64,000 nucleotides of DNA, taken from the NCBI GenBank assembly GCA_964016885.1, contig OZ024743.1, forward strand, positions 219,852,001 to 219,916,000. Direction: 5' to 3'. Below the pieces are notes generated by a model. It was not told where the DNA came from, made no database searches, and saw only the letters and a list, made by a program, of their open reading frames with translations. Positions 1-63,658 of the stretch are shown in pieces. Source of the DNA: Eledone cirrhosa (lineage: Eukaryota). Position 1 is the first letter of the stretch, and every line of letters begins with the position of its first letter. Both the position numbers and the translations under genes were made by a program.

Positions 1-3000
1 GGATAGAATGTTGTTAGAACGCCGAATAGAATGTTGTTAGAACGCCAGATAGAATGTTGTATGAACGCCAGTTAGAATGTTGTTAGAACGCCAGATAGAA
101 TGCTGTTAGAACGCCAGATAAAATGTTGTATGAACGCCAGATAGAATGTTATTAGAACGCCACATAGAATGTTGTTAGAACGCCTGATAGAATGTTGTAT
201 GAACGCCAGATAGAATGTTGTATGAACGCCAGATAGAATGTTTTATGAACGCCAGAGAGAATGTGGTATGAACGCCAGATAGAATGTTGTTAGAACACCA
301 GATAGAATGTCGTTAGAACGCCAGATAGAACGTCGTTAGAACACCAGATAGAATGTTGTTAGAACGCCAGATAGAATGTTGTATGAACGCCAGATAGAAT
401 GTTGTATGAACGCCAGTTAGAATGTTGTTAGAACGCCAGATAGAATGTTGTATGAACACCGGATATAATGTTGTTAGAACGCCGAATAGAATGTTGTTAG
501 AACGCCAGATAGAATGTTGTATGAACGCCAGATAGAATGTTGTTAAAACGCCAGATAGAATGTTGTTAAAACGCCAGATAGAATGTTGTTAGAACGCCAC
601 ATAGAATGTTGTTAGAACGCCAGATAGAATGATGTATGAACGCCAGATAGAATGTTGTATGAACACCAGATAGAACGTTGTTAGAACGCCGAATAGAATG
701 TTGTCAGAACGCCAGATAGAATGTTCTTAGAACGCCAGAGAGAATGTTGTATGAACACCAGATAGAATGTTGTATGAACGCCAGATTGAATGTTGTTAGA
801 ACGCCAGATAGAATTTTGTTAGAACGCCAGATAGAATGATGTATGAACGCCAGATAGAATGTTGTATGAACGCGAGATAGAACGTTGTTAGAACGCTAGA
901 TAGAATGTTGTATGAACACGGGATAGAACGTTGTTAGAACGCCGAATAGAATGTTGTTAGAACGACAGATAGAATATTGTACGAACGCCGGATAGAATGT
1001 TGTTAGAACGCCGAATAGAATGTTGTTAGAACGCCAGATAGAATATTGTATGAACGCCAGTTAGAATGTTGTTAGAACGCCAGATAGAATGCTGTTAGAA
1101 CGCCAGATAGAATGCTGTTAGAACGCCAGATAAAATGTTGTATGAACGCCAGATAGAATGTTGTTACAACGCCAGATAGAATGTTGTTAGAACGCCAGAT
1201 AGAACTTTGTTAGAACGCCAGATAGAATGATGTATGAACGCCAGATAAAATGTTGTATGAACGCCAGATAGAATGATCTGAAAACGCTAGATAGAATGTT
1301 GTTAGAACACCAGATAGAATGTTGTGTGAACGCCAGATAGAATGTTGTATGAACGTCAGATAGAATATTCTTAGAACGCCAAATAGAATGTTCTTAGAAC
1401 GCCAGATAGAATGTTGTATGAACGCCAGATAGAATGTTGTTAGAACGCCGAATAGAATGTTGTTATAACGCCAGATAGAATGTTGTATGAACGCCATATA
1501 GAATGTTGTATGAACGCCGGATGGAATGTTGTATGAACGCCAGATAGAATGTTGTTAGAACGCCAGATAGAATGTTGTATGAACGCCAGATAGAATGTTG
1601 TTAGAACGCCAGATAGAATTTTGTTAGGACGCCAGATAGAATGTTATTAGTACGCCAGATAGAATGTTGTATGAATGCCAGATAGAATGTTGTTAGAACA
1701 CCAGATAGAATGTTGTTAGAACGCCAGATAGAATGTTGTATGAACGCCAGACAGAATGTTGTTACAACACCAGATAGAATGTTGTTAGAACCCCAGACAG
1801 AATGTTGTATGAACGCCAGATAGAATATTGTATGAACGCCAGATAGAACGTTGTATGAACGCCAGATAGAATATTGTATGAACGCCAGATAGAATGTTGT
1901 TAGAACGCCGAATAGAATGTTGTTAGAACGCCAGATAGAATGTTGTATGAACGCCAGATAGAATGTTGTTAGAACGCCAGATAGAATGCTGTTAGAACGC
2001 CAGATAGAATGCTGTTAGAACGCCAGATAAAATGTTGTATGAACGCCAGATAAAATGTTGTATGAACGCCAGATAGAATGTTGTTAGAACGCCACATAGA
2101 ATGTTGTTAGAACGCCTGATAGAATGTTGTTAGAACGCCGAATAGAAAGGTTGTTAGAACGCCACATAGAATGTTGTTAGAACGCCGGATAGAATGTTGT
2201 TAGAACGCCGAATAGAAAGGTTGTTAGAACGCCAGATAGAATGTTGTATGAACGCCAGATAGAATGTTGTATGAACGCCAGATAGAATGTTTTATGAACG
2301 CCAGATAGAATGTTGTTAGAACGCCAGATAGAATGTTGTATGAACGCCAGATAGAATGTTGTTAGAACACCAGATAGAATGTTGTTAGAACGCCAGATAG
2401 AACTTCGTTAGAACACCAGATAGAATGTCGTTAGAACGCCAGATAGAATATCGTTAGAATGCCGGATAGAATGTTGTATGAACGCCAGATAAAATGTTGT
2501 TAGAACTCCGGATAGAACGTTGTTAGAACGCCAGATAGAATGTTCTTAGAACGCCAGATAGAATGTTGTATGAACGCCAGATAGAATGTTGTTAGAACGC
2601 CAGATAGAATGTTGTATGAACGCCAGATAGAATGTTGTTAGAACGCCAGATAGAATGCTGTTATAACGCCAGATAAAATGCTGTGCGAACGCCAGATAGA
2701 ATGTTGTATGAACGCCAGATAGAATGTTGTTAGAACGCCACATAGAATGTTGTATGAACACCAGATAGAATGTTGTATGAACGCCAGAGAGAATGTTCTT
2801 AGAACGCCAAATAGAATGTTCTTAGAACGCCAGATAGAATGTTGTATGAACGCCAGATAGAATGTTGTTAAAATGCCAGATAAAATGTTGTTATAACGCC
2901 AGATAAAATGTTGTGTGAACGCCAGATAGAATGTTGTATGAACGCCAGATAGAATGTTGTTAGAACGCCACATAGAATGTTGTTAGAACGCCAGATAGAA

Positions 3001-5745
3001 CGTTGTTAGAACGCCAGATAGAATGTTGTATGAACACCGGATAAAATGTTGTTAGAACGCCGAATAGAATATTGTTAGAACGCCAGATAGAATGTTGTAT
3101 GAACGCCAGATAGAATGTTGTATGAACGCCAGATAGAATTTTGTTAGAACGCCAGATAGAATGTTGTTAGAACGCCAGATAGAATGTTGTATGAACGCCA
3201 GATAGAATGTTGTATGAACGCCAGATAGAATGTTGTATGAACGCCAGATAGAATGTTGTTAGAACCCCAGATAGAATGTTGTTAGAACGCCAGATAGAAT
3301 GTTGTTAGAACGCCAGATAGAATGTTGTATGAACGCCAGGTAGAATGTTGTATGAACGCCAGATAGAATGTTGTTAGAACCCCAGATAGAATGTTGTTAG
3401 AACGCCAGATAGAATGTTGTTAGAACGCCAGATAGAATGTTGTATGAACGCCGGATATAATGTTGTATGAACGCCAGATAGAATTTTGTTAGAAAGCCGA
3501 ATAGAATGTTGTTAGAACGTCAGATAGAATGTTGTTAGAACGCCAGATAGAATGTTGTATGAACGCCAGATAGAATGTTGTATGAACGCCAGATAGAATG
3601 TTGTTAGAACGCCAGATAGAATGTTGTTAGAACGCCAGATAGAATGTTGTATGAACGCCGGATATAATGTTGTATGAACGCCAGATAGAATGTTGTTAGA
3701 ACGCCAGATAGAATGTTGTATGAACACCGGATAGAATGCTGTTAGAACGCCGAATAGAATGTTGTTAGAACGCCAGATAGAATGTTGTATGAACGCCAGT
3801 TAGAATGTTGTTAGACCGCCACATAGAATGTTGTATGAACGCCAGATAGAATGTTGTATGAACGCCAGATAAAATGTTGTTAGAACGCCGAATAGAATGT
3901 TGTGAGAACGACAGATAGAATATTGTACGAACGCCGGATAGAATGTTGTTAGAACGCCGAATAGAATGTTGTTAGAACGCCAGATAAAATGTTGTATGAA
4001 CGCCAGATAGAATGTTGTTAGAACGCCAGATAGAATGCTGTTAGAACGCCAGATAGAATGCTGTTAGAACGCCAGATAGAATGTTTTATGAACGCCAGAT
4101 AGAATGTTGTTAGAACGCCGAATAGAATGTTGTATGAACGCCAGATAAAATGTTGTATGAACGCCAGATAGAATGTTTTATGAACGCCAGATAGAATGTT
4201 TTATGAACGCCAGATAAAATGTTTTATGAACGCCAGATAGAATGTTTTATGAACGCCAGATAGAATGTTGTTAGAACGCCAGATAGAATGTTGTTAGAAC
4301 GCCAGATAGAACTTCGTTAGAACACCAGATAGAATGTTGTTAGAATGCCAGATAGAATGTCGTTAGAACGCCGGATAGAATGTTGTATGAACGCCAGATA
4401 AAATGTTGTTAGAACTCCGGATAGAACGTTGTTAGAACGCCAGATAGAATGTTCTTAGAACGCCAGATAGAATGTTGTATGAACGCCAGATAGAATGTTG
4501 TTAGAACGCCAGATAGAATGTTGTATGAACACCAGATAGAATGTTGTATGAATGCCAGATAGAATGTTGTTAGAACGCCAGATAGAATGTTGTATGAACA
4601 CCAGATAGAATGTTGTATGAACGCCACATAGAATGTTGTTAGAACGCCAGATAGAATGTTGTATGAACACCAGATAGAATGTTGTATGAATGCCAGATAG
4701 AATGTTGTATGAACGCCAGATAGAATGTTGTTAGAACACCAGATAGAATGTTGTTAGAACGCCAGATTTGAATGTTGTTAGAACGCCAGATAGAATGATG
4801 TTAGAACGCCAGATAGAATGTTGTTAGAACACCAGATAGAATGATGTATGAACGGCGGATAGAATGTTGTTAGAACACCAGATAGAATGTATTTAGAACG
4901 CCAGATAGAATGTTGTTAGAACACCAGATAGAATGTTGTTAGAACGCCAGATAGAATGTTGTATGAACACCAGATAGAATGTTGTATGAACGCCAGATAG
5001 AATGTTGTATGAACGCCAGATAGAATGTTGTTAGAACACCAGATAGAATTTTGTTAGAACGCCAGATAGAACGTTGTTAGAACGCCAGATAGAATGTTGT
5101 AAAAACGCCAGATAGAATTTTGTATGAACGCCAGATAGAATGTTGTATGAACGCCAGATAGAATGTTGTATGGACGCCAGATAGAATGTTGTTAGAACGC
5201 CATATAGAATGTTGTATGAACGCCAGATAGAATGTTGTTAGAACACCAGATAGAATGTTGTTAGAACGCCAGATAGAATGTTGTATGAACGCCAGATAGA
5301 ATGTTCTAAGAACGCCAGATAGAATGTTGTAAAAACGCCAGATAGAATTTTGTATGAACGCCAGATAGAATGTTGTATGAACGCCAGATAGAATGTTGTT
5401 AGAACGCCAGATAGAATGTTGTATGAACGCCAGATAGAATGTTATTAGTACGCCAGATGAATGTTGTATGAACACAAGATAGAATGTTGTTAGAACGCCA
5501 GATAGAACGTTGTTAGAACACCAGATAGAATGTTGTTAGAACGCCAGATTTGAATGTTGTCAGAACGCCAGATTGAATGATGTTAGAACGCCAGATAGAA
5601 TGTTGTTAGAACACCAGATAGAATGATGTATGAACGGCAGATAGAATGTTGTTAGAACGCCAGATAGAATGTCGTTAGAACACCAGATAGAAAGTTGTCA
5701 GAACACCAGATAGAATGTTGTTAGAACGCCAGATAGAATGTTGTA
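1..5745. repeat. 23-bp tandem satellite (about 250 copies, runs off the window's left edge)
   Basis: Monomer GAACGCCAGATAGAATGTTGT(TA/AT), with two interspersed variants. Translations repeat every 23 aa (3 x 23 bp). Confidence 0.98.
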
Positions 5746-5789
5746 AACTACACGAACACGAAATTTACAGTGGTTTAGACAATGATTTG

Positions 5790-5935
5790 TTCGATCAATG
5801 CAACAATCTGGTCGTGAAATTAACGTGTGAGTGGATGAGTATTACTCAGACATATTTACCCGTAATGCAATTGTCAGGAAGATGCAGCATGATGTGACAC
5901 TATGTGACAAGACCGACCCTTTTAATTACAGGTAG
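5790..5935 (+). repeat. Dispersed repeat fragment (family also at about 10095-10235 + and 58450-58600 -)
   Basis: Shared blocks TCGTGAAATTAACG ... GACAAGAC(C/T)GACCCTTT(T/G)AATTACAGGTA; a degenerate reverse-complement copy lies near 58450-58600. Confidence 0.7.
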
Positions 5936-6924: not shown

Positions 6925-9366
<2,442 letters not shown>

Positions 9367-12127: not shown

Positions 12128-12552
12128 AGGGCGGTGTATTGGCAATATCGGTAGAGGGTCGGACACCATGCTTTGCAGCATAGAGTTACGGCCATTTACG
12201 GTCTGAGTTCAAATCGCGCCGAGGTTAAGTTTGCCTTTCATCCTTACGGGGTCGTTAAAATAAAGTACCAGTTACGCACTGGGGTCGATTTCATCGACTT
12301 TCCCATCACCCAAAATTATTTGCCTTGTGCCTATAGACGAAACCATTATATGTACCAAAGGGCTGTGCATTGGCAATATCGGTAGGGGGTCCTACACCAT
12401 GATTTGCAGCGTAGAATTACGGCCCTTTACAGTCTGAGTTCAAATCGCGCCGAGGTTAACTTTGCCTTTCATCCTTACGGGGTCGATAGAATAAAGTACC
12501 AGTAATGCACTGGGATAATTGCTGGCCTTGTGCCAAAAGTAGAAACAATTAT
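12128..12552 (+). mobile_element. Two tandem copies of the same SINE
   Basis: A box TGGCAATATCGG, B box GAGTTCAAATC, same core. ATATGTACCAA occurs at all three junctions. Confidence 0.9.
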
Positions 12553-13268
12553 ATGTACCAATAGAGTTCATGAAATCAAACTACCACCCGGTGCTTTGGG
12601 CACCTAGAGAAGTGCAAAACAGTGCCGCACACTATCTTGCTAAATTATAACTAAGATAAATTCCACAATCAGAACATACTCATATAGTGTAGTGGGGTGG
12701 CAATAATCGAACAAAGCGATTGGGGTTATCAACAAAATTAATAAAATTAATAGAAATAGGATTTAGCTTCAAGCATAACTGTATACAGATATGTATAACA
12801 ATTCCGTATTTCTAAAGCAACACGGAATGTTTACAGGGTAAAACAAAATTAATATCAAACAATCAATTAATAAAAAAATATCTAAAAAATGAATATATAA
12901 CTCAGTGGCGGTGCCCCAGCATGGCCTCAGCCTGCCGGCTGGACCAATAGAGTAACCCAAATAAATGCATATTCCAACAGTGAGTTGCAGAACAATCCTG
13001 GAGTTGTAAGCTTGTCAAGTAACTACATAAGACGTCCAGTGTGTCTGTTCTGGTACATCACAGACCAGTAAGTAGTTATGTTTATAAATGTCTGCCTTAA
13101 CGACTTAATTATCAAGATGTTGTATTTCCACTGTGTTGTCACATCTAGGTGTTTTGCCTGCATCTCCATCTCTTTTGTGAATCAGGTATATATACACATA
13201 TCTAATTTGGAGGCATATAAACATGTCAGAAAATACGAATTTCTTTGTAAATTGGAATAATGTTAAAC

Positions 13269-13520: not shown

Positions 13521-13566
<46 letters not shown>

Positions 13567-13601
13567 GTGTGTGTGTGTGTGTGTATGTGTGTGTGTGTGT
13601 A

Positions 13602-13745
13602 TCCCGGGTTCAATCGGGGGTAACCTCAGTAAGAAAGGTACTCAATACATAGTAGAGTATATAATGTTTAATATAGAAATGGCTTTCCTGATGATTTCCT
13701 TCGAATGAAACAGTTCTAGTCCTGTACAAGCCATTTCTACATTAA

Positions 13746-13750
<5 letters not shown>
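13602..13750 (+). mobile_element. Fold-back element with hammerhead ribozyme, copy 1
   Basis: CTGATGA 13688-94, GAAA 13707-10, stem III CAG/CTG, GTA 13724-26. Inverted arms 13663-13685 and 13728-13750. Flanked by (TG)n and (TA)n. Confidence 0.8.
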
Positions 13751-23680: not shown

Positions 23681-24310
23681 TGTATTACTGTTATAAAATT
23701 TAAAAACAGACCACGAAATAATAGATAGTATATCTAGATTTTGGTATAACTGTCTGTATCTATATTGTGAGACATATTTTAAACTGAATATCTTTCCATT
23801 TTTCTCTACACCAATCAGTTGTCATTCTTTCTGCTATTTAAACATTTTTATATATGATGACAGACGGAATTTCACGAGTGGCAACGGGAAACTCCGAGTA
23901 ACGATTTGTAATTTTTAGCTTCCAGAGAATTGTAACACTCTACCTTCACTATTCAGTAATCTCTTTTGATCGTGTCTTATCTATCTATCTATCTATCTCG
24001 AAGAAGATAGACGTGTTTTTGTTTCGCTCCTGCATTTTGTCGGAATTATTACGAGAAGCGGTAGGTTTGTTTAAGCTACTTGTTATTTGTTGTGTTTAAC
24101 CCTCGCCTGGGCCTGCAGACGTTGGGTAAAATAAATTTCGCCCCTTTTTGGGGCGAAATTTGATAGTTATAAGTTATCGATAAAAAGTCGTTTAGTGACA
24201 ATGGACGCCATTAACACGACGCATGCCCCCCCCCCCCTAAGGAAAGTGATAGAGAGAAGGTAGCAGCACAACGCTGAAAACCTTCCTTCCTCACTCCCGC
24301 AAAAGACACC

Positions 24311-25372
24311 ATGGAATCAAAAGAAAAAATTGTGGAAATGGGTGAAAACCCCAAAAGTAACAATTACACAAACAAGAACAACAATGACATTAACAACACA
24401 ATCAACAACAGCAACAATGACAATAACAACACAACCAACAACAGCAATAATGACAACACCAACAAAGGAAAAAAGCAAGCCAACACGAATAACAACAACA
24501 ACAATGATAACAACACGAAAGAAAACGGACCCACTGCTGCAGTCTCCTTCGCACAGGCAGTTCGAGAAACGCAGACATACAAGGCACTGGACATCTCGAA
24601 TGCCAAGAAATTGCTGAAAGAAGCAAGGAATTGTGTAAATTTCGGGGAAGGTGGGGAATTCACAATTACCTCCCCCGAAGAAATTAGAAGGGACACAGTC
24701 CTGAGGACTGTAATCTTTAGGACAGTTTCAAACGTGACTTGGAAACCGGCTCAATTGTCCCAAAGCGAAATTGAGCTGGTCCTAAGTAGTGCCTGGAAGC
24801 ATATCGCTTTTATACAGAAAGGGAAACTGTATGGAAGCATATCTGTTTTACTGCAAGATGAATTGGCGGCACGGAAATATTCTGTGTCGCCAATTGTATC
24901 CAAAGCATTCACCTTTCCCCCCACATATTTGGAGAAAAGAACTCAAAAGATAAGAATCTTTGGCATCAGGCCAAATGTGAGCATTTGGTGGGTGCTAGCG
25001 GGATTCTTAGTAGATGAGGATTCAATCCTTTCGATAGGTGAATCCACCGAGGGCGTATTCGGCGGCAATAGCCTTGAAGTTCTGGTCCAAATGAGACCAG
25101 AACGGATCGCAAGAATACCGCAGCGTGTGTCCCTGGATGGAGTCGCCTTCATAAACATTTCTGTTGAGGGCAGGCGGCCTTCATGCTACCACTGTTCAAG
25201 AAGTGGTCACCTGAGGGCTTCCTGTCCCCTTTTAAATGCCCCTACCCCCCAAAAAGACGCTTCTGCCCACCCCACACACAACAACACAATCACCACCACC
25301 ACCACAACAACCACAACAACACGAAAAAATAACAACACAAGACACTGTCCCACCCAACCCCTCCCCACCTAA
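24311..25372 (+). CDS. Tx1 family A ORF1 (gag-like, zinc knuckle), frameshifted downstream
   Basis: SFAQAV motif and VEGRRPSCYHCSRSGHLRASCP (CX2CX4HX4C); homologous to the ORF at 47898. Confidence 0.85.
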   Translation: MESKEKIVEMGENPKSNNYTNKNNNDINNTINNSNNDNNNTTNNSNNDNTNKGKKQANTNNNNNNDNNTKENGPTAAVSFAQAVRETQTYKALDISNAKKLLKEARNCVNFGEGGEFTITSPEEIRRDTVLRTVIFRTVSNVTWKPAQLSQSEIELVLSSAWKHIAFIQKGKLYGSISVLLQDELAARKYSVSPIVSKAFTFPPTYLEKRTQKIRIFGIRPNVSIWWVLAGFLVDEDSILSIGESTEGVFGGNSLEVLVQMRPERIARIPQRVSLDGVAFINISVEGRRPSCYHCSRSGHLRASCPLLNAPTPQKDASAHPTHNNTITTTTTTTTTTRKNNNTRHCPTQPLPT

Positions 25373-26067
25373 AACAAATCAAAAACAACCGCAACAAAAC
25401 CCCAAAATATACCCCTCCCCAACAACACGAACGAGGACCCCTTAGCAACGTCACCCAGTGACGACGAGGGAGAACCCTTTTAACCGGTAAAAAGAAAGAA
25501 AAGAAGGCACCACATCAACAAAAATACAACAAACACACAGCCACCAGCACAAACAGAACAAACATCACAAACAAAAAAACCCACCCCTACCGAAAACATA
25601 ACACATACTACAAAACGCAAACACACACAAGAACAACAAACAAAAACAAACAAAACACAACAAAAACAGTATACATACATCAACACAAACAACAAAACAC
25701 TTGTGCAAACAATAGACAAAGATCCTTCGGTGGAAACCGAAGGGAAAATGTTCACCAACGCGGCGACTAAACGCATTTAAAAATGATTAGGGTCCCAAGG
25801 GACACCTACGCAATGCTCAAACAGAATTTTCCCGAGGACGTGGGGAACCCCTGTACTAGACCTAACAACCGCGTCCTCTTGAAATCTTTTCCCACCACCA
25901 CCCCAGACACCCCGTCCCCACCAAACACCCCCACCCCACCACATCCCAAACCACCACCCCACCAAACAACCCCGCCGACACCTCCATGGAAATTGCGCAG
26001 CTTGGTCCCCAGGAGAAGGACTAGTAGGTATCTTCCTTTTCTCCACTCTAAACTCTTCACCACCAAC

Positions 26068-29000
26068 ATGGCTGTTATAAGAGTTGGATGTTTAAATGTG
26101 CGCGGCCTGGGGATGTCCTGGAAGCAGGGCAAACTCTTAAATGACCTCAGGTCGCACAGAATGGATGTGATAGCTATTTGCGAGTCCAGGATCAACAGCG
26201 AGCACCAACAGGCCCTCATTTTCGACGACTTTGAGATCTATGCATCTCTCTGTAGCCGGGGGTGGGGGTGGGGTGGTCGTTCTGCTGCGAAAACACCTGG
26301 GCCTCGCAACACGGAAGGTACACCTGGACCCGGAGGGCCAACTGGTGGTTCTAGACGTCGGCAGTAGTGAAGGTGGAGCCTTCAGGCTGGTGGCAGCGTA
26401 TGCCCCATCTGGGACACCGCGGCCGGACTTCTTCGAACGCCTAGAGACTTTTCTGGGAACGTCTCGCTCCTTGCTTTTAGTGGGGGACTGGAATGGTATC
26501 ATGGATGCACGTTGGGACTATGTAGGGGCATGTCCCGATAGAGGGGGTTGTAACAGCCTCAAACGGTTTATCGGCCGATTTGATCTGGCCGATAGATATC
26601 TACTAGATTTTCCGACTGTGCCACTGTGGACGTGGTCTAATCGCAGCGGAACATCTAGGTCGTACCTAGATAGGTTCCTAGTTAGAAATAAGGATAGGGA
26701 CATATTAAGCTGTCCGCGAATGTTCATGGTTGACTATTCGGATCACAAGTTGGTGACCGGAGTGGTCAACCTTGATAGAACCCATTGACAAGGACCCGGT
26801 TACTGGAAGCTAAACTTGTCCTTACCGACAAACAAAGCTTACAGTAAGCGGATTAGCACTCTAGTTAAGCAGCGGTTGACGGGGGCAATTGTCAACAGCA
26901 GGTTATGGGGCTCTCTCAAGAGACAAATTAGAATAGAATCGATAGTCAGGAATTAGCATCAGATAGGAATAGAACTGAAAGGGAATTGATAGATAGAGTA
27001 GAAGAGGTGATTAGGAGGGGCAATGTGGCAGGCGTGCTGGCATCAAGAACGGCCCTAGACCAGTTCTTTGACGCGAAGCACGAGGGCTGCGTTGTCAGGA
27101 GTAAAATACGTGCTCTGGGTAACGAGGGAGCCAAAGCTGTTAGCTGGGCCCGAGTGACAGAGGCAAAAAGTGGAAACAAGTCCACGATTCGGTCTTTGAA
27201 GGACCAGGATGGACGCGTGATCCTTGAACCTGAGCGGATGTGCGCGGCCTTTCAACGGCGCTTTGCACGACTTTTCGGGAGGGGCGGCGGGCCGGGTGAG
27301 GCCATGGATTTCGGTCCATACATTGATGGTATGCCGCGGCTCTTGGACGGGGAGGCGAAGTACTGCGAAAGGACGATTTCAGCCGCTGAGATAGGGGAAG
27401 CGCTGAGCCAATGCGGCAAACGCAAATCTCCCGGTCTCGATAGTCTACCATACGAACTTTATGTAGGGATGCCGGACTTGTTCTCCAATCTCCTCGAGGC
27501 GGTCTACTGCAACTGGCAACAGAACGGGAGAATTTCCAGTTCTGTGACCAAGGGCGTAGTCACGCTGGTGAGGAAGGACGAGAACAAGGGAGATGACATA
27601 GATAACTTCAGGCCCATAACTCTGCTAAACACAGTTAAAGATTTTGGCCAAAGTGTTAGCGAAGAGGTTGGCGCTTGTCGTCGGGAACCTGGTGGAAGAA
27701 GCGCAGACATGCGCAATCCCGTCCAGGTCCATACACGACAAACTCCATCTCATGCGATACTTCGTAGAGAGGGTAGGGAACGAACCCGGCTTTGGTGGGG
27801 ACCTGATCAACTTGGATCAATTTAAGGCGTTCGATAGGGTCGACCATCAGTACCTGGATGCGGTGCTCGCGGCGGCAGGGTTAGGACCCGTTTTCAGGGG
27901 CTGGATTGCTGCAATGCACAGCAGCAACACCTGCTCGAGAGTCAAGGTGAACGGCTACCTTTCGGAGCCGTTCCAAATCGCGCGATCCATCCGACATGGA
28001 TGCCCTCTCTCCTCCCTTCTGTATGTGCTGGCTCTCGAGCCACTACTACGGAAGTTGGAGCTGTTGCAGGGAATCTCCTTGGAACTGGGATTGCAGAAAG
28101 CGGTGTCGGCCTACGCCGATGATGTGACAGTAATGGTGTCGTGCACCTCGGAAATCGGGTAGATCGGCACCTTACTGGAGGAATATGAAAGGTTTACAGG
28201 AGCCAAGCTGAACCGGGACAAGTCCGCCGGTTTGCAACTCGGAACATGGAGAGGCAAACCGATGTCCTCCGACGGCTTCGTCGGACGCTGGACGGAGGGA
28301 CCGGTGAAGCTGCTCGGGGTCTGGTTTGGACCGGACCTCCAGGTGGAGAAAAACTGGGTCGAGGTTACGGGCAGGGTGTTTGCACTCGCCCAGAAGTGGG
28401 CCGAGTGTAAACTATCCCTGAAAGGTCGAGCGGAGGTGGCGAACGCTTATATAGCGTCCGTCATCTACTACCGCTTGAGCGTCGTGCCTTGCGCAGCGAA
28501 AACGCTCGCCAAAATGGAGCGCGCTCTTCCGATTCCTTTGGAAGAAGTGGGCCCCTTTGGTGAGAAGATCCATCTGCTGTCAATACTCTTCGAACGGAGG
28601 GCTGGGGATGCCGTAGACACGCATTAAGGCTATGGCACCTCCAGGTATTCCTCACCGGTCAGTCGGTGTGGGCCCCTTTTGTGAGGCGAGCCTGGGTCAA
28701 GCAAAGACCGAGAAAAATGGGCGATGGCACATTGAATGTGCCCAGGCGCTCACAGCCCTCTGGCAAGCGGATCCGGCAATCAGTGGAGACGCAACCTCAA
28801 CATTCTATAGAGGGTTGGTGCGCAGGAGTGTGACGACGTTCTCGGAGAGGCTCTGGGTATGGAGGAAGACAAGCTAGCCAGTCTGTTCGTTTGGCCCGGA
28901 AGCGATGAACAATTTCCAAAAGTCCCTGGCTTAGCAGTGCTACCGAGGAGCTCTACCCATTCGGGACAAGCTCTACAGACACGGGCGCCCGGGCAAGGAC

Positions 29001-29432
29001 CCCTCGAAGAAGATCTGTCCGAGATGCGTGCGTGACGAGGAAACCGTCGCGCACGCATTCGTACACTGCCCGGGCGTTGCTGACCTGTGGGGCTATGTGG
29101 AACGACTACTGTCGCGGGTGGGACCAATCCGGTTGACCACCGAGTACATTGTCACGATCAAACCGCCTCCCCCTTTCAAAAACGAAGGAGAGGCGGTTTT
29201 CCTCTGTGTGATAGCTATGGCGAAAGAGGTTGTATGGTGGACGAGGTTGAAAGGGCTGAGGTCAGACACTTTTCTCTCCGGCCAACAACTGGTCCTTTTT
29301 TTCAAGTACCATTTTAGAAGAAGGATTAGAATGGAGAGAGAGGTGCCCTACCCCAGCAAGTTTTATGAAAGGTGGGTGAAAGTGGCGAGAATGGCCCGAG
29401 TGAATGGGCCTTCTCTCTATATCAGCCTGTAG
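26068..29432 (+). pseudogene. Tx1 family A ORF2 (APE endonuclease + reverse transcriptase), multiple frameshifts and stops
   Basis: LNVRGL, GDWN, YLDRF, SDHK, KSPGLD, FRPITLLN, KAFDRVDH, HGCPLS, YADD, ETVAHAFVHC in successive frames. Confidence 0.93.
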
Positions 29433-29694
29433 GTGAGAGAGGAGAAGAAAGAGGAGAAGAAGGGAGCACCCGCTCTTTGTGCTCCTGAGGAGGAGGGTTA
29501 CACATTTTCTTCGGGTGTGTGTGCGACCCACGTCAACTCCCCCGCCCTATTGAGGACTTCGATTGTTAAATTTAATTTGTTATATGTTTTTACACGTCCT
29601 TTGAAATGTATGTAATCCCCCACTTGTATTTGTCCCAATCTTTGAAGCCCTGGTGGCAAATAAATAGAAAGTTATCTATCTATCTATCTATCCA

Positions 29695-30872
29695 TCTGCT
29701 GAGATCCATCTACTGTCAACACCCTTCTAACGGAGGGCTGGGTATGCCGTGGCTGATGATGCGTTAATACGCGCTGAGGCTACGCCATCTCCAGGTATTC
29801 CTGACCGGTGAACCGGTGTGGCTGCTGTTTGTGAGACAAGCTCTTCCACAACTCGTTTCGCTAACAGAGCTGCAGTCCTGGGTCAAGCGAAGGCCGAAAA
29901 TGGGTGCCTGGCACCTCGAGTGCCTACAGGCGCTCACAGCCCTCTACCAAGCGGAAACGGCAATCAGCGGAGACTCCACTTCGACATTCTATAGGGGATT
30001 AGTGGAGGATAAGTGCGACGACGTTCTCGGGGAAACTCTAGGCATCGAGGAGGACGAACTGATCAGTCTGTTCGGGAGGACTTTCCGTCCAGGGCCTATG
30101 GATAACTTCCAGAGGTCTCTGGACTGGCAGTGCTACCGAGGAGCTCTACCAGTTCGAGACAAAATCTACAGGCACGGACGCCCTGGCAGAGGTCCTGCCA
30201 AAAGGACCTGTCCAAGATGCGAGCAGGACATCGAAACCGTTCTGCATGCAATTGTTCAGTGCCCAGGGGTGACCGACCTGTGGAATTATGTCGAACATCT
30301 ACTGTCACATGTGGGACGCATACACTGGTCAGCCGAGTCCATCGTGAGGATCACCACGCCGCCTTCATTTAAGAATGAAGGAGAGGCGGTCTTCCTCTGT
30401 CTGGTGGCTATGGCGAAAGAGGTACTATGGTGGACGAGGTTGAAAGGACTGAGGGCAAACACCTTTCTCTCCGTTCAACAACTTAGCCCCTTCTTTAAGT
30501 ACCACTTCAGAAGGAAGGTGAGAGTGGAGAGAGAGGTGCTACACCCCAGTAAATTCGCTGAAAGGTGGGTAAATGTGGCGAAAATGGCCCGAGTGAATGG
30601 GCCTACTCTGTATATAAACCTGTAGGTTGAGGAAAATAAACAGAGAGAAGACGGGAACACCTACAAAACATATTCCTGGTGTTGAGGGTTGTTCTATCCA
30701 CGGGGTATAAAACTACCCCGCAGTAACGTTACCCCCGCCCAATGGGGATTTCAATTGTTTTATTTTTATATAGTTTATTGTTATTTATCATTGTTAAAGA
30801 TTTTATGTAAAACCCCGCCGCCACGTCTTGTAATGTCCCATTTTTGTACGCCCCTGTGGCAAATAAAGAAAG
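29695..30872 (+). mobile_element. 5'-truncated Tx1 family A-related copy in tandem
   Basis: ORF 29816-30625 is the ORF2 C-terminus (CPRC..ETVLHAIVQC). Starts in the (CTAT)n tail of the previous copy and ends AATAAAGAAAGTTATCTATCTAT. Confidence 0.92.
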
Positions 30873-32139: not shown

Positions 32140-35100
32140 TGCGGGGACATAGAAATAATCGGGCTGGATGCCCGATCGCGCAGTTAAACCACTGGGAGTG
32201 ATGAACCCCTAGCCCTTGTCAGGGCATTCTTCTAGGAGAAGGCATCTCAGGAAACTGGGTTAACTCCGACATAAAACCTGCGGCTCAGTAGTTACCGATG
32301 ATGTTGGTCTCTTCTTTTCGGGTTATAGCTACTGTCGCTCAGAGAGTGGGATTGGCTCAGTGCACAGTCTTTCCTCACTTTAAAAATATTCGTCACGCAC
32401 AGGCATTGCACGAGTGCATTAATAATTATTAATAGTGTACTATTATTATTATTATTATTGTTACTATTATTATTACTTTTTTTTTTTTTTTTAAATTCAA
32501 TGATGTTCCAGAACAATATAAAAGAGATAATTGGCAATTTAGGTTCTGGAACAAAAAAGATAATTGGCAATAAGGGCAGGGGCCCCAGGATATCACAGCC
32601 TGGGCCCGCTCGTCCTCGTGCCATTGTAATAGAGCCAAACAAGGCATTTAGTCTTGGCTGCTGGAACGTACGGACGCTGATTGACAGGGATTCATTGGAG
32701 CGTCCTGAACGAAGGACCGCTCTTGTTGCAAAGGAGCTTCGACGTTACGATCTTGACATCGTGGCTTTATCTGAGACGAGGTTAGCTGGAGATGGTCATC
32801 TTACAGAATTTTGTGGAGAATATACATTCTTCTGGAAAGGAAGAGATGAAGGAACCAGAAGAGAGACTGGGGTAGGATTTGCTGTTAAGACTGTACTTGT
32901 GAATAAATTAGAAGAATTCCCAGTAGGGATTAGTGAGCGTCTTATGTCCATGAGAATTCCGCTGGACAAAGGAAGATATGCGACCCTGGTGAGTGTGTAT
33001 GCTCCAACTATGAATTCTGTCGATGAAGAAAAAGTGTCCTTTTACCATGCCTTGAAAGGTGTTTTAAGAAATATCCCTCAGGCAGACAAAGTCATCGTGC
33101 TTGGTGACTTTAATGCTAGAGTGGGTAGGGATTTTAACACATGGAATGTAATCGGAAGGCATGGGGTGGGAAAGTGTAACAACAATGGTATGCTCCTGCT
33201 GCAGATGTGTGAGGAGCTGGATCTGTGTGTTACCAACACCATGTTCCCACAAAAGAACAAATTCAAGACCACATGGATGCATCCTGCATCTAAAGAATGG
33301 CATCTTTTGGACTACGTCCTAGTCAGGATGCGTGACAGACAGGATGTGCAGTGTGTTCGTGCTCTTCGTGGAGCTGAGTGCTGGACGGATCATCGCCTGG
33401 TACGCGCAAAAGTGAAACTAATCACTAAACGTAAAATCCTGCCCAAAAGATTGAATGCTGCTCGTCTTAAGGATAAAAATGTGAAGAGGACATTGGAAGA
33501 ATAGATGCAGGCTGCAGATCTTGGTGAGGATTGGCCGACCCTTAAATAGTCGGTTTATGATGTAGGCAGGCGTGTTCTGGGATTGGTGCAGAGAAAACAT
33601 CAGGACTGGTTTAATGAGAATGATGTACATATAGAAGACTTGTTGGCTGATAAGAGGCGTGCTCTGTCACGCTACTTGACGGCAAAACCACAGGAGAGGA
33701 ATACGTTGCACGAGGAACTCAAGGATGTAAAATCACGTGTTAGGCGGAGTCTTTCTCAGATGAAGGATCAGGGGTGGAGTGAGAAGGCTGGTGAGATACA
33801 AACTGCGTCAGATTCCAATAACACAAAGCTGTTGTACAGTCTCTTGTGTGAGGTTTATGGACCGTCTTCTTCTCTGGTGACACCGCTTCGCAGCAAGGAT
33901 GGCAAAGAACTTCTTCGTGACTCACAAGGAATTCTACGAAGGTGGCGAGAGCACTTTGATGATCTTTTGAATCAGTCGTCTGTCGTCAGTGAAGATTTCC
34001 TCAATCTCATTCCAGAGAGTCCTGTGAAAGTAGCTCTCGCAGAACCTCCGACGCTCGTGGAGGTTGCAGTGGCTATTTCGAAGCTGAACAGTGGAAGATC
34101 TCCAGGTATGGATGGCATACATGCTGAGCTCCTACAATATGGTGGTGAGAGACTCCTGCAACGTCTTCACTCTTTGTTTGGCAGGATATGGGCTAATGAA
34201 TCCGTACCCGAGGACTGGAGAGATGCAGTAATGGTGGTCTTGTACAAGGGAAAGGGTAACAGGAATGATTGTGGGAACTACAGAGGTATATCATTGTTTC
34301 TGTCGTAGGGAAAGTTTTATGTAGGGTGCTTCTGGACCGTCTGCTGACACACATTGCAGATCGTGTTCTTCCTGAAAGTCAATCTGGTTTTCGTGCTGGA
34401 CGCGGCACTACTGATATGATCTTCTCAGCTAGACAGCTCCAGGAGAAGTGCATGGAACAAGGCTTGGATCTGTATCAGGTTTTTGTCGATCTGACAAAAG
34501 CTTTCGATACTGTTAACAGAGATGCATTATGGAAGGTTCTCCAGAAACTTGGTTGCCCTGATAAGTTCCTTGCTTTAGTTAGGTCTTTCCATGACGACAT
34601 GAAGGCTTGGGTTAATGTCGGAGGTAACATGTCGGAGCCTATCTCAGTAAAAAATGGAGTGAAACAGGGGGATATTCCAGCACCGACCCTGTTTGCCATA
34701 TACTTTGCAATGGTTTTCTGTATTGCGAGCATGGTGTTTACATCCGATATCGAACCTCAGGCAGCATATTTAACATCAAGCGCTTTGCTGCAAAGACAAA
34801 AGTATTTACATCAATCATAAGAGACCTCTTATATGCAGATGATTGCGATCTTGTAGCGCACACAGAGAGTGATATACAGCACATTTTGAATGCATTTTCT
34901 GACGCTTGCACTGCCCTAGGATTGACTGTCAGTCTCAAGAAAACCGTCGTCATGTACCAACCTGCCCCTGGTAAGCAGTACACTGAACCAAACATCTATG
35001 TTTATGGTAAACAACTTGGAGTGGTTGATCAGTTTGTCTACCTGGGAAGCACTGTCAATCGATACAGCAACCTTGACAGTGAAATCTCACTTAGGATTAG

Positions 35101-36188
35101 GAAAGCAAGTGTTGCTTTCAGAAAGCTAAAAAGGCGACTCTGGGGTCGGCGAGACATATGCAGGAGGACAAAGGTAAAGGTGTACAGGGCATGTGTGCTC
35201 TCTTGTCTTCTTTATGCCTGCGAGACCTGGGTCACATATCGACACCACCTTAAGCAATTGGAGCGTTTCCATCAGATGTGTCTCAGACGGATCCACGGCG
35301 TTCACTGGAGGGACCACATCAGTGATGTCGAGATTTTGGAAAGCTCTATGTGTGACAGTATAGAAGCTCTTGTGCTTAAGCAACGACTCCGTTGGAGTGG
35401 TCACCTTGCCAGGATGAAGGATTCTCGAATACCAAAACAATTCTTTTATGGAGAGTTGGTTAAAGGAAAACGACCGCCACATAAACCAAAAAAGAGGTAT
35501 AAGGATTCCTTGAAAGCCTCTCTGAAAGACGCTAACATCTCTGCTGATACATGCGAAAATATTGCTGCTGATCGTAATAAATGGAGAAAGACTGTATATG
35601 AGGGAAAAGTTGCCTTTGAGGCATCTCGAATCGCATACGAGAAAGTAAAGCGGGATGTGAGGAAGGGCATTGCTGTTGCACTTCCAGACGGCGAGGGTCC
35701 TCCTATGGTGCTGACATGCAACGTCTGTGCGAGACTCTGCTTAAGCAAAGCTGGACTCGAAAGTCATCTTCGCAGTCATAAAGTAAGACCAGTGGTTGAC
35801 TACCAGGCTGCTGTTGGAGATGCTACTCATCATGCTTGCCAAACATGTGGTAGAGAATGTAAATCAGCAGGAGGGCTCAAGCGACATGCAAAAGTACACG
35901 AACTCCAACCACAGCCGACTATTCCCAGTAAATGTTTTGGTTGCCGACTCTGTGCAAGACATTTTAGATCATTGGCTGGGCTAAAAAGCCACATTCGATC
36001 GCAGCGTTGTTAGTTGCTATCGTGTGTGTGTGTGTGTATAGATATGTTGATGTGTGTGCGTGTATGTGTATATATATATGTATATGTATATTATTATTGT
36101 TGTTGTCGTTATTATTATTGTTATTATTATTATTATTATTGTTATTAATATATGTGTGTGTGTGTATGTATGTGTGTGTATGTGTGTA

Positions 36189-42494: not shown

Positions 42495-42501
<7 letters not shown>

Positions 42502-42631
42502 CAATATGTAAAGAAGATAACACACCAGAGAGAGAGAGAGAGATAGTGCGCTATCAGTCAAACAGGGAAAAACCACCAGTGTATGGAATCTCTCTCTCTG
42601 GTGTGTTATCTTCTCTACATATTGTATTATA
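42495..42631. repeat. Fold-back inverted repeat next to (TA)n
   Basis: TATAATACAATATGTA.AGAAGATAACACACCAGAGAGAGAGA and its reverse complement at 42588-42631. Confidence 0.85.
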
Positions 42632-42707: not shown

Positions 42708-42790
<83 letters not shown>

Positions 42791-42794
<4 letters not shown>

Positions 42795-42919
42795 GGGTTC
42801 AATCGGGGGTAACCACAGTAAGTAAGGTACTCAATACATAGTAGAGTATACATTTTTAATATAGAAATGGCTTCCTGATGATTTCCTTCAAATGATACAG
42901 TTCTAGTCCTGTAGAAGCC

Positions 42920-42925
<6 letters not shown>
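42791..42925 (+). mobile_element. Fold-back hammerhead element, copy 2 (core GAAA>GATA)
   Basis: Near-identical to 13602-13738. Perfect 12-bp stem I AGAAATGGCTTC/GAAGCCATTTCT, CTGATGA 42875-81, GTA 42911-13. Confidence 0.8.
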
Positions 42926-43014
<89 letters not shown>

Positions 43015-43409: not shown

Positions 43410-43532
43410 TTCGTCTCCAGAGGTTTTTTGCCAGATTTATTCAGATACTTTTTATGGTTTGCAAATATTATGACAATTATCTACACTGTGGCGACTATAT
43501 AATATATATAGCCGCCACAATATATATATTTT

Positions 43533-43612
43533 TTATCTGACGAAAGCGTACTTAAATATTAGTATTTCGTATTTCAAGGGTACTAATATTTAAGTACGCT
43601 TTCGTCAGATAA
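43533..43612. repeat. Perfect 32-bp hairpin containing a partial hammerhead core
   Basis: Arms 43533-43564 and 43581-43612, 16-nt loop. Minus strand CTGACGA-AAGCGTACT..AGTACCCTT-GAAA. Confidence 0.8.
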
Positions 43613-43619
43613 TATATAA

Positions 43620-44030
43620 ATATATATATATATATACATATCGAAACCTGTCTCAGTTCATACCCGCTTGTTATAAAAAAGGGAAGGATATTCTGGATAG
43701 TGTAGTCATTTTATTAACAATAGGGCGGTGGATTGGCAGTATCGGTAGAGGGTCGGACGCCATGCTTTGACGCATTGAGTTACGGCCCTTGCCATTCTGA
43801 GTTCAAATCCCGCCGAGGTTAACTTTGCCTTTCATCCTTACGGGGTCGATAAAATAAAGTACCAGTAATACACTGGATAATTGCTGGCCTTGTGCCAATA
43901 GTAGAAACAATTATATATATATTGTGATTGTTAAAATGACTACACTCTACAGAATATCCTTCCCTTTATTTTTATAACAAGCGGGTATGAACTGAGACAG
44001 GTTTCGATATGTATATATATATATATATTT
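43620..44030. repeat. About 100-bp inverted repeat arms enclosing a SINE
   Basis: 43620-43721 is the reverse complement of about 43927-44030 (CATATCGAAACCTGTCTCAGTTCATACCCGCTTGTTATAAAAA..GGGAAGGATATTCTG). Confidence 0.9.
43722..43912 (+). mobile_element. Full-length tRNA-derived SINE (reference copy of the dominant family)
   Basis: GGCGGTGGATTGGCAGTATCGG (A box), GAGTTCAAATCCC (B box), core, and 3' GGCCTTGTGCC..TAGAAAC. Confidence 0.92.
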
Positions 44031-44238
44031 ATATATTGCTGCCATGTGATCCCCTCGTTGGATCGTTGATGTTTGTGTTATTACTGTTGCTGTTGATGTC
44101 GTTGTTAATGTTATTAAGCCCCAAAGTAAGTTCTGGTCGAGTAAACATATAATAATTAATAGAGTTCCAGTCATGACCATCGTTGCTGCAATATATTTGT
44201 GACTGACACGAAGTACGTTGTTATATTTGAAAGTAAAA

Positions 44239-47650: not shown

Positions 47651-47897
47651 AGTAGTGGTGGTATTATTATTATTATTATTATTGGCGACCTACGTAGTAA
47701 AACGTATCACCGTGAGCTCCGCAAAGGTTTGTTATTTTCAGTTGTTTAAAATTGCCATTCATGGAAAATTTTTATTGTTAACTGTATATAAGTGCACATA
47801 CATTGTTATCTGAAAAGGACACCCAAAAAGATTGGGGCCTTGAGCCCAAAATTTAAACTTTTATAATTATCAAACAAAAATTTTTCTTTGAAACATC

Positions 47898-49841
47898 ATG
47901 GCTGACTCAGAGTCACTCCTTTCTCACAAACTAACACCTCACACCGACACCACAATTGTAAATATTACTACGTTTGCCAACACTAAAAAAAATATAAGCA
48001 GTAGCAATATTTTAAATTTGTCTCAGGCAGACATTCATTTCCCGCCATTACCAATGACTGCAGGTGTTAAAGCCGCCACCACCGGGACAACCACCAACCT
48101 CACCACCACCGCGACAACAGAAACAAAAGAAAAAAATAAATTAACTCGTGATATCGAAATGAATTCAACCAAAATGAACTCTTCCACACCGAACACCACT
48201 GACGCCACCACCACCACAACTGAAACTAAAATTAATAATAACAAAAATAACGATAACAACAACAGCAACAATGACATTAAGAAAACCACCCTGAGTTTTG
48301 CCAGAGTAGCAAAACAGTGCGAAGCATTTCAGGTAACTCAGGAGGAATTAGAAGAAGTCAAACAAATGGTAAAGAAAGATGGGTACAGGGTCAGCCTCAC
48401 CCCCCCACCTAATAAAATGGAGCATCGGCGCCTATGCACCGTGTCTTATCGAACAATTAATATAAAATCGCCACGAGTGGAACGGGCATCCGAGTCCCAA
48501 ATCCAAAAAGCTTTGGGACATGTGTGGGCAAAAAAACCCCACATCAGACGTGGGCAGAAGTATGGAACCGTGGACGTGTTCTTTGAAACACCACAGGAGG
48601 CTAGAGAACACTCCATGGCCCTATTAAGAAGTGATGACTTCACACTCGTCTCAAGCTATTGTGGCCAGAGACTCGTAAAGATCAGGGTCACCCACGTTCC
48701 ACCGGCCATCGAAATTCCCTGGCTAATAGCTGCCGTCCTCGCCGGCATCGAAGCCAACACCAAGATAATCGAAATAGCGAAAGAAAAGCAGGAGAACTGG
48801 TCCGGATCTGGGATGGAGCTCCTGATCCAAGCGGACCAAAAAAGCATTGAGGAGATCCCAGAGGTAATAGACCTCACTGACGGCAGCCACCTCACCGTAA
48901 TTGTCGAGGGCAGAAGGCCTAGGTGTGTCGTTTGTGGTGAAGGAACCCACCTAAGGGCTTTCTGCCCTCAGGCTAAAAGGTTGAGACCACCTCTCCTACC
49001 CACCCCAGTGACTCAACCATCAACACCACCAGCAGCAGAGATGGCAGCAACAACTGTAGCAGCAACAACAGAAGCAACTGTAACAGCAACAACCCCAGCA
49101 ACAGTAGCAAAACCAACACCACCACCACCCAACGCGCCAGAACTAGCACCAGCGCCTACACCATCCACCACGCCACAACCAAAACTAACGCCTGTGGAGG
49201 ATTTTCCACTCCCCGGCCTATCACAACTGGAGACAGATTGTGACGACGAGGAGTGGGAAACGGTATCAGGAAAAAAGAAAAAAAGGAACCAAAAAAGAAA
49301 AAAATCTCTTCCTTCCCCCTCCAAAAACAAGATACAGAGGGAAACAAATAAACTATCAAACAAAAAAGTTAGGACAGATATGCCACCATCCACACCAGCA
49401 TCACCAACCCCATCACCCCAAACACCAACACCATCACCATCATTAACCCCAACACCACCATCACCTACACCACAAAAGTCACCAAAAAGCGAAACAGAAA
49501 CAAACCCACAACAAACGCAAACAAAACAAAACAACTAAAACGATACACACTACACAGCATTAAATTTGAACAACAACCAATTATTACACTACATCCAACA
49601 CAACACTAGCATCACAGAAAAAGACTACACAACAACCCAAAAGTTCACACCACTTCCACACATACAAATCACTCGCATCACACAGAAAACGTACATGACA
49701 CTAAAACAAAAATTCCCTAAAGACATCGGAGACTTCCGACAAGCACTCTCCAGGAGGATTTATAAGAACATCCTTCCTGAGGAGGCCACAAGCAGTGAAA
49801 AGGATGGAGAAACCGTCCTTCCTCTACGAGAAGTAAGGTAA
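47898..49841 (+). CDS. Tx1 family B ORF1 (one in-frame TAA at 49536)
   Basis: SFARVA; VEGRRPRCVVCGEGTHLRAFCP knuckle; Pro/Thr linker; basic cluster after EEWETV. ORF 49566-49841 is in the same frame. Confidence 0.85.
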
Positions 49842-49875
49842 GTGGTCTTTCCTATCTTTTCCACTCCATTTCAAT

Positions 49876-52800: not shown

Positions 52801-53274
52801 GGAGCTTTGCCAGTTCGAAATAAACTCTACAGGTATGGAGGTGCCGTCAGCCGGGCATGTCCGAGATGCTCGCAGGGCGACGAAACCGTCCTGCACGCAC
52901 TCGTCCAGTGTCCGAGCATTGCTGACTTGTGGGTTTATGTCGAACACCTGCTGTCACGTGTAGGACGGATCCAACTATCAGCTGAGTCCATCGTGAGGAT
53001 TGCCCCGCCCTCTTCCTTTAGCCGGGAAGGGCAGGCAGTTTTTATCTGTCTGGTGGCCATGGCGAAAGAGATAGTATGGTGGACACGTTTGAAAGGGCTG
53101 AAGACGAGCACTTACCTCTTCTGTGATGCCCTGATTAACTTTTTCAAATTTCATTTGAAAAGGAAAATCAGGGTAGAGAGGGAAATGCTCTCTTCCCAGC
53201 ATTTTGTTGAAAGATGGGTGAGAGAGGCAAGTATGGCCCGAATGAATGGGCCTTCTCTGAGTATGTGTCTGTAA
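49876..53274 (+). pseudogene. Tx1 family B ORF2 (APE + RT + Cys-rich), disrupted
   Basis: INARGL, ISETR, VYAP, GDWN, YLDR, TDHK, GYWKLN, KAFDRV, RQGCPLS, YADD, CPRC..ETVLHALVQC. Confidence 0.93.
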
Positions 53275-61517: not shown

Positions 61518-61584
<67 letters not shown>

Positions 61585-61611
61585 AGAGAGAGAGAGAGTG
61601 GGCGAGAGAGA

Positions 61612-61794
61612 GGAATGACATCTACAGGACTAGAACTGTTTCTTTCGAAAGAAATCACTAGGGCTTTACTGATGATTTCTTTCGAATGAAATAGTTCCAG
61701 TCCTGTAGATGCCATTTCTACATTAAACTTGTTTACTCTCTACTAATGTATTGAGTACCGTACATACTGTGGTTACCCTCGATTGAACCCGGGA
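61612..61794 (+). mobile_element. Fold-back hammerhead element, copy 3 (ribozyme itself inverted-duplicated)
   Basis: Sense core CTGATGA 61669-75, GAAA 61688-91, GTA 61705-07. Antisense copy at 61612-61660. The 3' arm ends GATTGAACCCGGGA. Confidence 0.8.
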
Positions 61795-62437
61795 CTCTCT
61801 CTCACACACACACACATTTGCACACACGTACATGCATATGCATACATATTGCCCCCGTCAGAAAGATCAACACACTATAGGATAGTAAGCAGTGTAAAAT
61901 TACGCACTTTTAAAACATATCTTAATAACACACGCGCACACACACACGCACATATTTGTGTGTGTGTGTGTGTGCATATATGTGTCTGTGTATGCCTGTT
62001 TAAGTATGTAGCTTTAATGGGTCTTTGGTCATCGACAAAAAACATTTATGATTATACAATGTGACGTGTGTAAGTCAGCCTTGTGAATCTTATTCCCCAC
62101 CAAACTAAGGAATTTAGTTAGAGCCAAAAAAAAAAAAAAAAAAAAAAATGAAGCTGCTCAAGCAAAATCAGAACCCGTGTATTCTCGCTCAATTCGCTGG
62201 GAGCTCACCATAGCATTCTACAATATATATATATATACACGTGCTTTTTTTGTTTCTATGGATGTAGGTAGACATGTGTATTATATAGTGTATATATATA
62301 TATATATATATGTAGATATCTATCTATATATATATATATATATGTATGTATATATATATATATATTATATATATCTGCTTTATAGTGCAGTTAATTGTCA
62401 CAAGAGACGAAGTTACTCGCCACTACATTCTATATTC

Positions 62438-63657: not shown

Positions 63658-63658
63658 C

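Follow-up and report, generated by a model that had tools for sequence, protein, structure and literature searches.

Hammerhead-bearing fold-back repeats in the octopus Eledone cirrhosa, probably truncated 3′ ends of a Penelope-like element

Insertions of Penelope-like elements (PLEs) have been described as 5′-truncated, with unequal ends, located in microsatellites and often accompanied by an adjacent inverted truncated copy (PMC8557442); such an adjacent inverted copy was also noted for Penelope-13_HM, a member of the Hydra clade (PMC8557442). Inverted ends in head-to-head arrangement have been reported for ordinary PLE insertions (PMC8557442, PMC3846280, PMC4209133), and palindromic head-to-head joints have been ascribed to self-priming (PMC3846280). 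Opposed hammerheads lie 100-700 bp apart in Schistosoma, and a truncated element in a bracovirus locus was described to have opposed motifs at its 5′ end (PMC4209133). In vitro, a PLE RT used two internal start sites and both target strands were extended; cleavage was unnecessary for insertion, and no RNA reads ended at the cut (PMC11167929). The function of PLE hammerheads has been called unclear (PMC8557442). Among cephalopods, Octopus has one Hydra family and three Naiad families with (TA)n preference (PMC8557442), the PLEs known from O. vulgaris are partly active, with 31 recently active families (PMC13282606), and hammerheads of the Rfam type have been counted in the giant squid (PMC6962438).

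The window analyzed in this study is a 64-kb stretch of DNA from Eledone cirrhosa, and our analysis is based on the three copies of a short repeat that it contains, together with the literature. BLASTN within the window placed the copies at 13602-13750, 42791-42925 and 61611-61794, in agreement with a preliminary description that had listed them at 13602, 42791 and 61612. Overall the copies are 86-93% alike. Copies 1 and 2 share 93% identity across 137 nt, and the matches of copy 3 comprise the hammerhead in direct orientation (91%), the arm in inverted orientation (86%) and a further hammerhead piece, also inverted (87%). An arm profile built from the three copies detected no fourth copy anywhere in the window, the best remaining arm-family locus having an E value of 3.2. 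Similarly, a window-wide search with a covariance model of four hammerhead rows found no extra copy, the next match scoring 12.6 bits compared with 70-88 bits. The density of three per 64 kb (Poisson 95% interval, 0.6-8.8) is not a genome estimate because the window was chosen for the finding.

All three copies are head-to-head fold-backs and are very short, at 135-185 nt (Table 1). On the strand that carries the fixed terminus, each copy consists of an antisense hammerhead segment on the 5′ side, followed by a head-to-head sense segment that continues to the fixed end. This end is common to all three copies, lies 84-87 nt past the predicted cut and carries a GC hairpin; it corresponds to the end of the shared arm of about 85 nt that had been noted previously. 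The end on the opposite strand is shorter and variable, extending past the cut by about 24 nt in copy 1, 12 nt in copy 2 and 11-12 nt in copy 3, in which the tail of the inverted half enters (CT)n. The inverted segment of each copy merges into a microsatellite, with the first letters of the tract matching the element. The predicted cut is where the sense segment of copies 1 and 2 starts, and the initial 6-7 nt of this segment double as the 5′ strand of stem I of the hammerhead on the other strand. In copy 3 the sense segment starts 7-11 nt upstream of the core and includes the whole hammerhead. The direct arm past the cut in copy 3 had been recognized in the preliminary description, but the inverted half of this copy had been overlooked; copy 3 is itself a fold-back, and as a hairpin with its own antisense half the whole copy folds at −77.9 kcal/mol. 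Thus, 5′ truncation, an adjacent inverted truncated copy and unequal ends occur together in three of three copies.

Table 1. Coordinates of the segments that make up the three repeat copies
Feature	Positions	Strand	Remarks
Copy 1, 3′ arm, 86 nt, predicted cut to fixed end	13602..13687	-	First 7 nt overlap stem I 5′ strand of the other-strand hammerhead
Copy 1, core, stem II and stem III up to predicted cut after GUA	13688..13726	+	
Copy 1, tail past cut, about 24 nt, into (TA)n	13727..13750	+	
Copy 2, 3′ arm, 84 nt	42791..42874	-	Starts exactly at base after predicted cut; first 6 nt are stem I 5′ strand
Copy 2, core, GATA for GAAA, broken stem II pair, perfect 6-bp natural stem I	42875..42913	+	
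Copy 2, tail, 12 nt, into (CT)n	42914..42925	+	
Copy 3, inverted half of hammerhead, start of core changed or missing, without stem I 5′ strand	61611..61661	-	
Copy 3, stem I 5′ strand and hammerhead core	61662..61707	+	Pairs with inverted half, hairpin of about 105 nt
Copy 3, 3′ arm, 87 nt, direct orientation, same fixed end, then (CT)4(CA)n	61708..61794	+	

The hammerhead core words CUGANGA, GAAA and UH are present in type I order, as previously claimed, and are exact in copies 1 and 3. The motif combines a weak, A-U-rich stem II of 3 bp with U-U at its base, a 4-bp stem III (ACAG/CUGU) and an 8-nt loop III, and the predicted cut follows the A of GUA. Although the layout is common to the copies, the core is not intact throughout as had been thought. 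Copy 1 has a C-C mismatch at the closing pair of stem I, involving the C that follows the predicted cut, copy 2 has GATA in place of GAAA in the core, and copy 3 has TAG in place of CAG in stem III as well as a weak stem I. Most of the stem I seen in copies 1 and 2 (12-24 bp) was created by the inversion, the natural stem I being about 6 bp long; this natural stem is real, since copy 3 keeps its 5′ strand in a different upstream context. The hammerhead fold of copy 1 has an energy of −23.7 compared with an MFE of −24.3, although its closing pair is broken, whereas that of copy 3 is −2.7 compared with −11.1. Changes such as these are established to impair hammerhead cleavage. A disrupted 1.1-2.1 pair served as the negative control in PMC4209133. 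A CUAG palindrome is present in loop III. Pairing between two stem III strands has an energy of −12.8 kcal/mol, compared with −1.4 for the hairpin, which fits the dimer model for PLE hammerheads (PMC4209133). We regard this as a real hammerhead-type motif, every copy of which is damaged. The genomic stubs are predicted not to cleave, with no copy predicted to be competent, and the earlier suggestion of a self-cleaving family was not supported.

The arrangement of the copies and the state of their hammerheads also bear on a proposal that the repeats are non-LTR retrozymes, the units of which would be transcribed, cut by the hammerhead and circularized. The repeats have the type I layout and a unit size close to the low end of 150-450 bp, and U-U at the base of helix II is also found in a weakly cleaving axolotl retrozyme hammerhead (PMC7229834). 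However, retrozyme families are defined by tandem units (PMC7229834, bioRxiv 10.64898/2026.07.22.740005), head-to-tail tandem units were found in none of the three copies within the window, and all three hammerheads are damaged. We consider a circle-forming retrozyme, as envisaged in the preliminary description, to be very improbable.

A structural descriptor of the hammerhead had three matches in the window, copy 1 and two unrelated sites, compared with a mean of 0.09 in 100 shuffles, and a strict form of the descriptor had no match in any of the 100 shuffles. Copy 1 is the only one of the three copies that passes the descriptor, and its stem I is inflated by the inversion. Pairing was found in 89% of 45 cells compared with 24-49% when the structure, which was derived from the same rows, was slid. 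Two checks had been named for the motif, a match to an Rfam hammerhead and covariation in the stems. For copies 1 and 3, the lists of matches at E≤10 (12 and 36, respectively) contained no hammerhead family, and copy 2 was covered by the whole-window scan (150 of 183 matches); the Rfam matches were hairpin-type chance matches only, all below gathering scores. In the four close rows, none of 13 pairs was changed on both sides and one was changed on one side, leaving no compensatory pair. Both outcomes are consistent with a DNA-type fold-back (MITE or Helitron-derived) or a tRNA-derived SINE in which a hammerhead-like motif arose by chance, as are the GC hairpin at the fixed end, the other palindromes in the window and a word at the fixed end that we take to resemble a T-loop. 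Such an origin is hard to reconcile with the outer ends, which in each copy are unequal inverted repeats with one fixed and one variable end. In addition, no tRNA was called in the window, the descriptor is rare in shuffles, and the motif fits the published PLE hammerhead subtype in its core, both stems and position. We therefore regard a MITE or SINE origin as extremely improbable.

To place the motif among PLEs, we compared it with File S2 of PMC8557442, which contains 26 rows covering 25 Hydra-clade families and in which features were counted by eye. U-U at the base of stem II (a core of ...GAU, then UGAA) is present in 14 of the 25 families and the exact CUGAUGAU...UGAA pattern in 10, while stem III is ACAG/CUGU in four families and 3-4 bp long in all 25 (PMC8557442). 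By contrast, the consensus for metazoan PLEs in general contains G10.1-C11.1, and its helix III is minimal (PMC4209133). In 24 of the 25 families, one row with a 5′-located motif being omitted, the distance from the cut to the 3′ end is 30-355 nt with a median of 79 (PMC8557442). Both the hammerhead pattern and its position near the 3′ end fit the Hydra-clade rows, except for the longer loop III; the 8 nt of this loop, compared with 1-3 nt in 25 of 25 Hydra families, count against the assignment. We also considered an anole PLE in which the RT starts 111-118 nt into the ORF and the hammerhead cut is at 26 (PMC11167929). By subtraction, the RT start lies 85-92 nt past the cut, although this element is of another clade and the match in distance may be partly due to chance. 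The arm and the tail of the coral element Hydra-2_Amil (PMC8557442) share 13 of 15 letters and an upstream 6-mer, a likeness that was noticed post hoc and has a chance probability of 0.02-0.17 for the 15-mer alone and of about 1e-3 to 5e-5 with the 6-mer. The tail motif is complete in one of five Hydra 3′ ends viewed, two of which end too early for it. Four motifs from the window had no match in the available supplement text of PMC8557442, in which line breaks may hide matches.

These comparisons make it probable that the repeats are the 5′-truncated and now dead 3′ ends of an endonuclease-encoding PLE, probably of the Hydra clade. The PLE connection drawn in the preliminary description was thus supported, whereas its separate non-coding family was not supported in preference to truncated ends of a coding PLE, for which an inverted end is ordinary. 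File S2 holds Hydra and Chlamys motifs only, and comparison with other clades relied on a 56-motif alignment with poorly legible columns (PMC4209133). Because the specificity of the signature rests on this alignment, assignment to the Hydra clade is weaker than assignment to PLEs, although we still lean towards it. The best reading is that the parent would be an undescribed or unrecognized PLE family; it is taken to be distinct from Hydra-1_Obim because the hammerhead differs. The O. vulgaris repeat library of PMC13282606 may contain this family. Neither this octopus family nor PLE joints mapped to the cut site were found described in the literature at hand, which was largely without subscription papers and did not include Repbase and Dfam, and exact-pattern scans of viral and metagenome contigs found no relative.

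We also looked for a linked PLE ORF; the single ORF of Hydra-clade PLEs encodes an RT with DKT and RWK motifs, followed by GIY-YIG at the C terminus. Pfam searches of 144 frames (at least 36 aa) from the three flanking regions gave no RT or GIY-YIG match, the only matches being a homeodomain and one sub-cutoff match in a low-complexity frame. Neither the stubs nor the flanks carry a PLE RT/GIY-YIG ORF, and an ORF of the parent is not linked to the copies within the window. A start of the ORF within the hammerhead was not supported, since the 41-codon frame of the copy 3 core has two stops and copies 1 and 2 differ in frame; as a weak test, this 41-codon frame had no homologue among longer proteins. 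One feature counts against random truncation of a PLE: all three copies stop at or within the hammerhead, which is more uniform than random truncation predicts.

Several other features of the window lie near the copies. An NK2-type homeobox exon (62441-63493, minus strand; Pfam Homeodomain and Octopus Nkx2 matches) ends about 650 nt from copy 3, and the encoded protein shares 93% identity with proteins of O. sinensis and O. bimaculoides and 87% with that of O. vulgaris. A second, unrelated minimal-hammerhead candidate is located at 13307-13270 on the minus strand, about 300 nt from copy 1. This candidate, present once in the window, has the general PLE pattern, with a 5-bp stem II, a palindromic 2-bp stem III and a stem I with one extra A. 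Four other fold-backs occur in or around (TA)n, at 43520-43625, 43611-43713 with 43932-44037, 42495-42631 and 61218-61273. One pair of their arms encloses a SINE copy, and in two of the four a short stem comes after GAAA; these two may represent the termini of MITEs or of other PLE families. LINE-type remnants are present at 7148-9365 (minus strand) and 32329-36013 (plus strand), at 24278-30625 and 47892-53274, and at 63550-63999. Two copies that are 95-97% alike presumably resemble RTE, two more distant elements presumably resemble L1/Tx1, and a C-terminal fragment resembles what we take to be a restriction-like endonuclease. A tandem array of about 250 copies of a 23-bp unit, 85-90% alike, occupies 1-5800, and a SINE-like family of about 200 nt, which we assume to resemble known octopus SINEs, has 24 matches in the window (for example 43707-43925 and 12344-12557).

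The association of the copies with microsatellites was confirmed. A dinucleotide tract of at least five units is found no more than 10 nt from five of the six element ends and 13 nt from the sixth; by comparison, 3.3% of background positions and two of 48 SINE-match ends are within 10 nt of one. Direct contact with (TA)n was observed at only one of the six ends, the others touching (CA)n or (GA)n/(CT)n, and at four further ends (TA)n is found just outside the CA or GA tract. The (CA)n/(CT)n tracts between the ends and the outer (TA)n are located at 13563-13601, 42750-42790, 42926-42956, 61583-61610 and 61795-61816, and they prolong the last letters of the element on its sense strand. The window contains 71 TA tracts, 13 of which adjoin a CA or GA tract, and by eye four of these 13 are element flanks. 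The flanking CA/CT tracts were possibly added by slippage as reverse transcription started. Target-site duplications of PLEs vary and frequently cannot be discerned; the flanks of the three copies are all simple repeats.

The architecture of the repeats is known, being that of an ordinary PLE 3′ end with a hammerhead. What stands out is where the halves of copies 1 and 2 meet, namely within stem I and at the predicted cut. The 6-nt overlap of stem I is the longest inverted microhomology between the hammerhead and the arm, with five others of 5 nt. The joint of copy 3 lies upstream of the core rather than at the cut. The earlier claim that the inversion junction is set by the ribozyme stem is thus supported to the extent that joint and stem I coincide in copies 1 and 2, but not for copy 3. 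Copies 1 and 2 share not only this joint but also an arm variant at +14 (T), a position occupied by C in the tail of copy 1. These observations suggest that copies 1 and 2 descend from one event, a conclusion that depends on a single shared variant. The two halves of copy 3 share two variants that are absent from copies 1 and 2, and because these variants are private the copy 3 fold-back is considered to have arisen in its own lineage. A point against the reading as truncated PLE ends is that the halves of copy 3 differ at five of 46 positions, compared with three of 50 between copies 1 and 2.

Descent of copies 1 and 2 from one event raises the alternative of a non-autonomous PLE-derived mini-element, in which the fold-back formed once and the unit of ~150 nt was then amplified by PLE protein in trans. 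This alternative is near to the preliminary description but does not require cleavage. The 93% identity and common joint of copies 1 and 2, the arm variant that is missing from copy 1's own tail, and the shortness of all three copies are compatible with this alternative, and non-autonomous PLE derivatives have been described, namely MRC1 (PMC8557442) and pLTR-derived retrozymes (bioRxiv 10.64898/2026.07.22.740005). In contrast, the joint of copy 3 differs and both of its halves carry private variants, the shared-variant argument amounts to one C/T site, the short end is at about +24 in copy 1 and +12 in copy 2, and the fixed-terminus strand of copies 1 and 2 bears only an antisense hammerhead. 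On balance, we consider amplification of a mini-element to be unlikely and prefer truncated insertions of a PLE.

For truncated PLE insertions, the following series of steps would lead to the observed structures. A GIY-YIG/RT protein would nick the microsatellite, and reverse transcription would start inside the element RNA downstream of the hammerhead, with target-primed starts inferred at both the long and the short end. Copying would abort early, at the hammerhead, and a second, inverted copy would result from fold-back or from priming off the other target strand. The halves would be joined via the self-complementarity of stem I in copies 1 and 2, and by snap-back via a small hairpin just upstream of the core in copy 3. 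The hammerhead itself would have functioned in the parent RNA, possibly dimerizing through the CUAG palindrome of loop III. Three routes could generate the joint of copies 1 and 2: run-off from cleaved RNA, the product then annealing with another cDNA; a template switch at stem I in RNA that remained uncut; or a deletion that occurred later, between short direct repeats formed by stem I in a palindrome like that of copy 3. Stem microhomology alone accounts for this joint. That the joint is instead a fossil of cleavage in vivo, in which one cDNA ran off a self-cleaved PLE RNA at its cut 5′ end and, by stem I complementarity, paired with another cDNA that the opposite target strand had primed, seems to us quite doubtful.

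If that doubtful reading were true, the ribozyme would determine the points at which insertions end and the way in which they are closed, and its action could be counted across thousands of octopus copies; the ribozyme would then act in vivo while being dispensable in the only in vitro PLE system (PMC11167929). If the truncation and inversion points of a high-copy family cluster on the ribozyme, they would provide a purely genomic test of the role of the hammerhead. Otherwise, octopus repeat annotation gains one PLE family, probably of the Hydra type, in which loop III is a variant form.

Three described systems come closest to the repeats. Like metazoan non-LTR retrozymes (PMC7229834; bioRxiv 10.64898/2026.07.22.740005), they have a type I hammerhead, are non-coding and are of likely PLE origin. 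Unlike retrozymes, they are arranged head-to-head rather than in tandem, and their hammerheads are damaged. They share several features with PLE insertions that carry an inverted pLTR and tail (PMC3846280, PMC4209133, PMC11167929): inverted ends placed head-to-head, two termini of different length downstream of the hammerhead, opposite-strand hammerheads close together, mostly solo truncated motifs, and a long end of 84-87 nt compared with 85-92 nt in the anole element. They differ from those insertions in being only 135-185 nt long, in a difference between the ends of 60-75 nt instead of a 30-40 nt tail, and in having the joint inside stem I at the predicted cut in two of three copies. The third system is the Hydra-clade PLEs (PMC8557442; for example Penelope-n_HM, Penelope-1_NV, Penelope-1_SK, Hydra-2_Amil and Hydra-1_Obim). 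The repeats differ from these in their 8-nt loop III with the CUAG palindrome, their weak A-U-rich stem II, a sequence that does not resemble Hydra-1_Obim, the lack of an ORF, and in that most of their ends meet (CA)n or (CT)n ahead of (TA)n. The features in common are the CUGAUGAU...UGAA core, a short stem II, the ACAG/CUGU stem III, a cut after A, a motif no more than about 100 nt from the 3′ end, insertion into microsatellites, an inverted truncated copy on the 5′ side, occurrence of the clade in Octopus and a tail stretch shared with Hydra-2_Amil.
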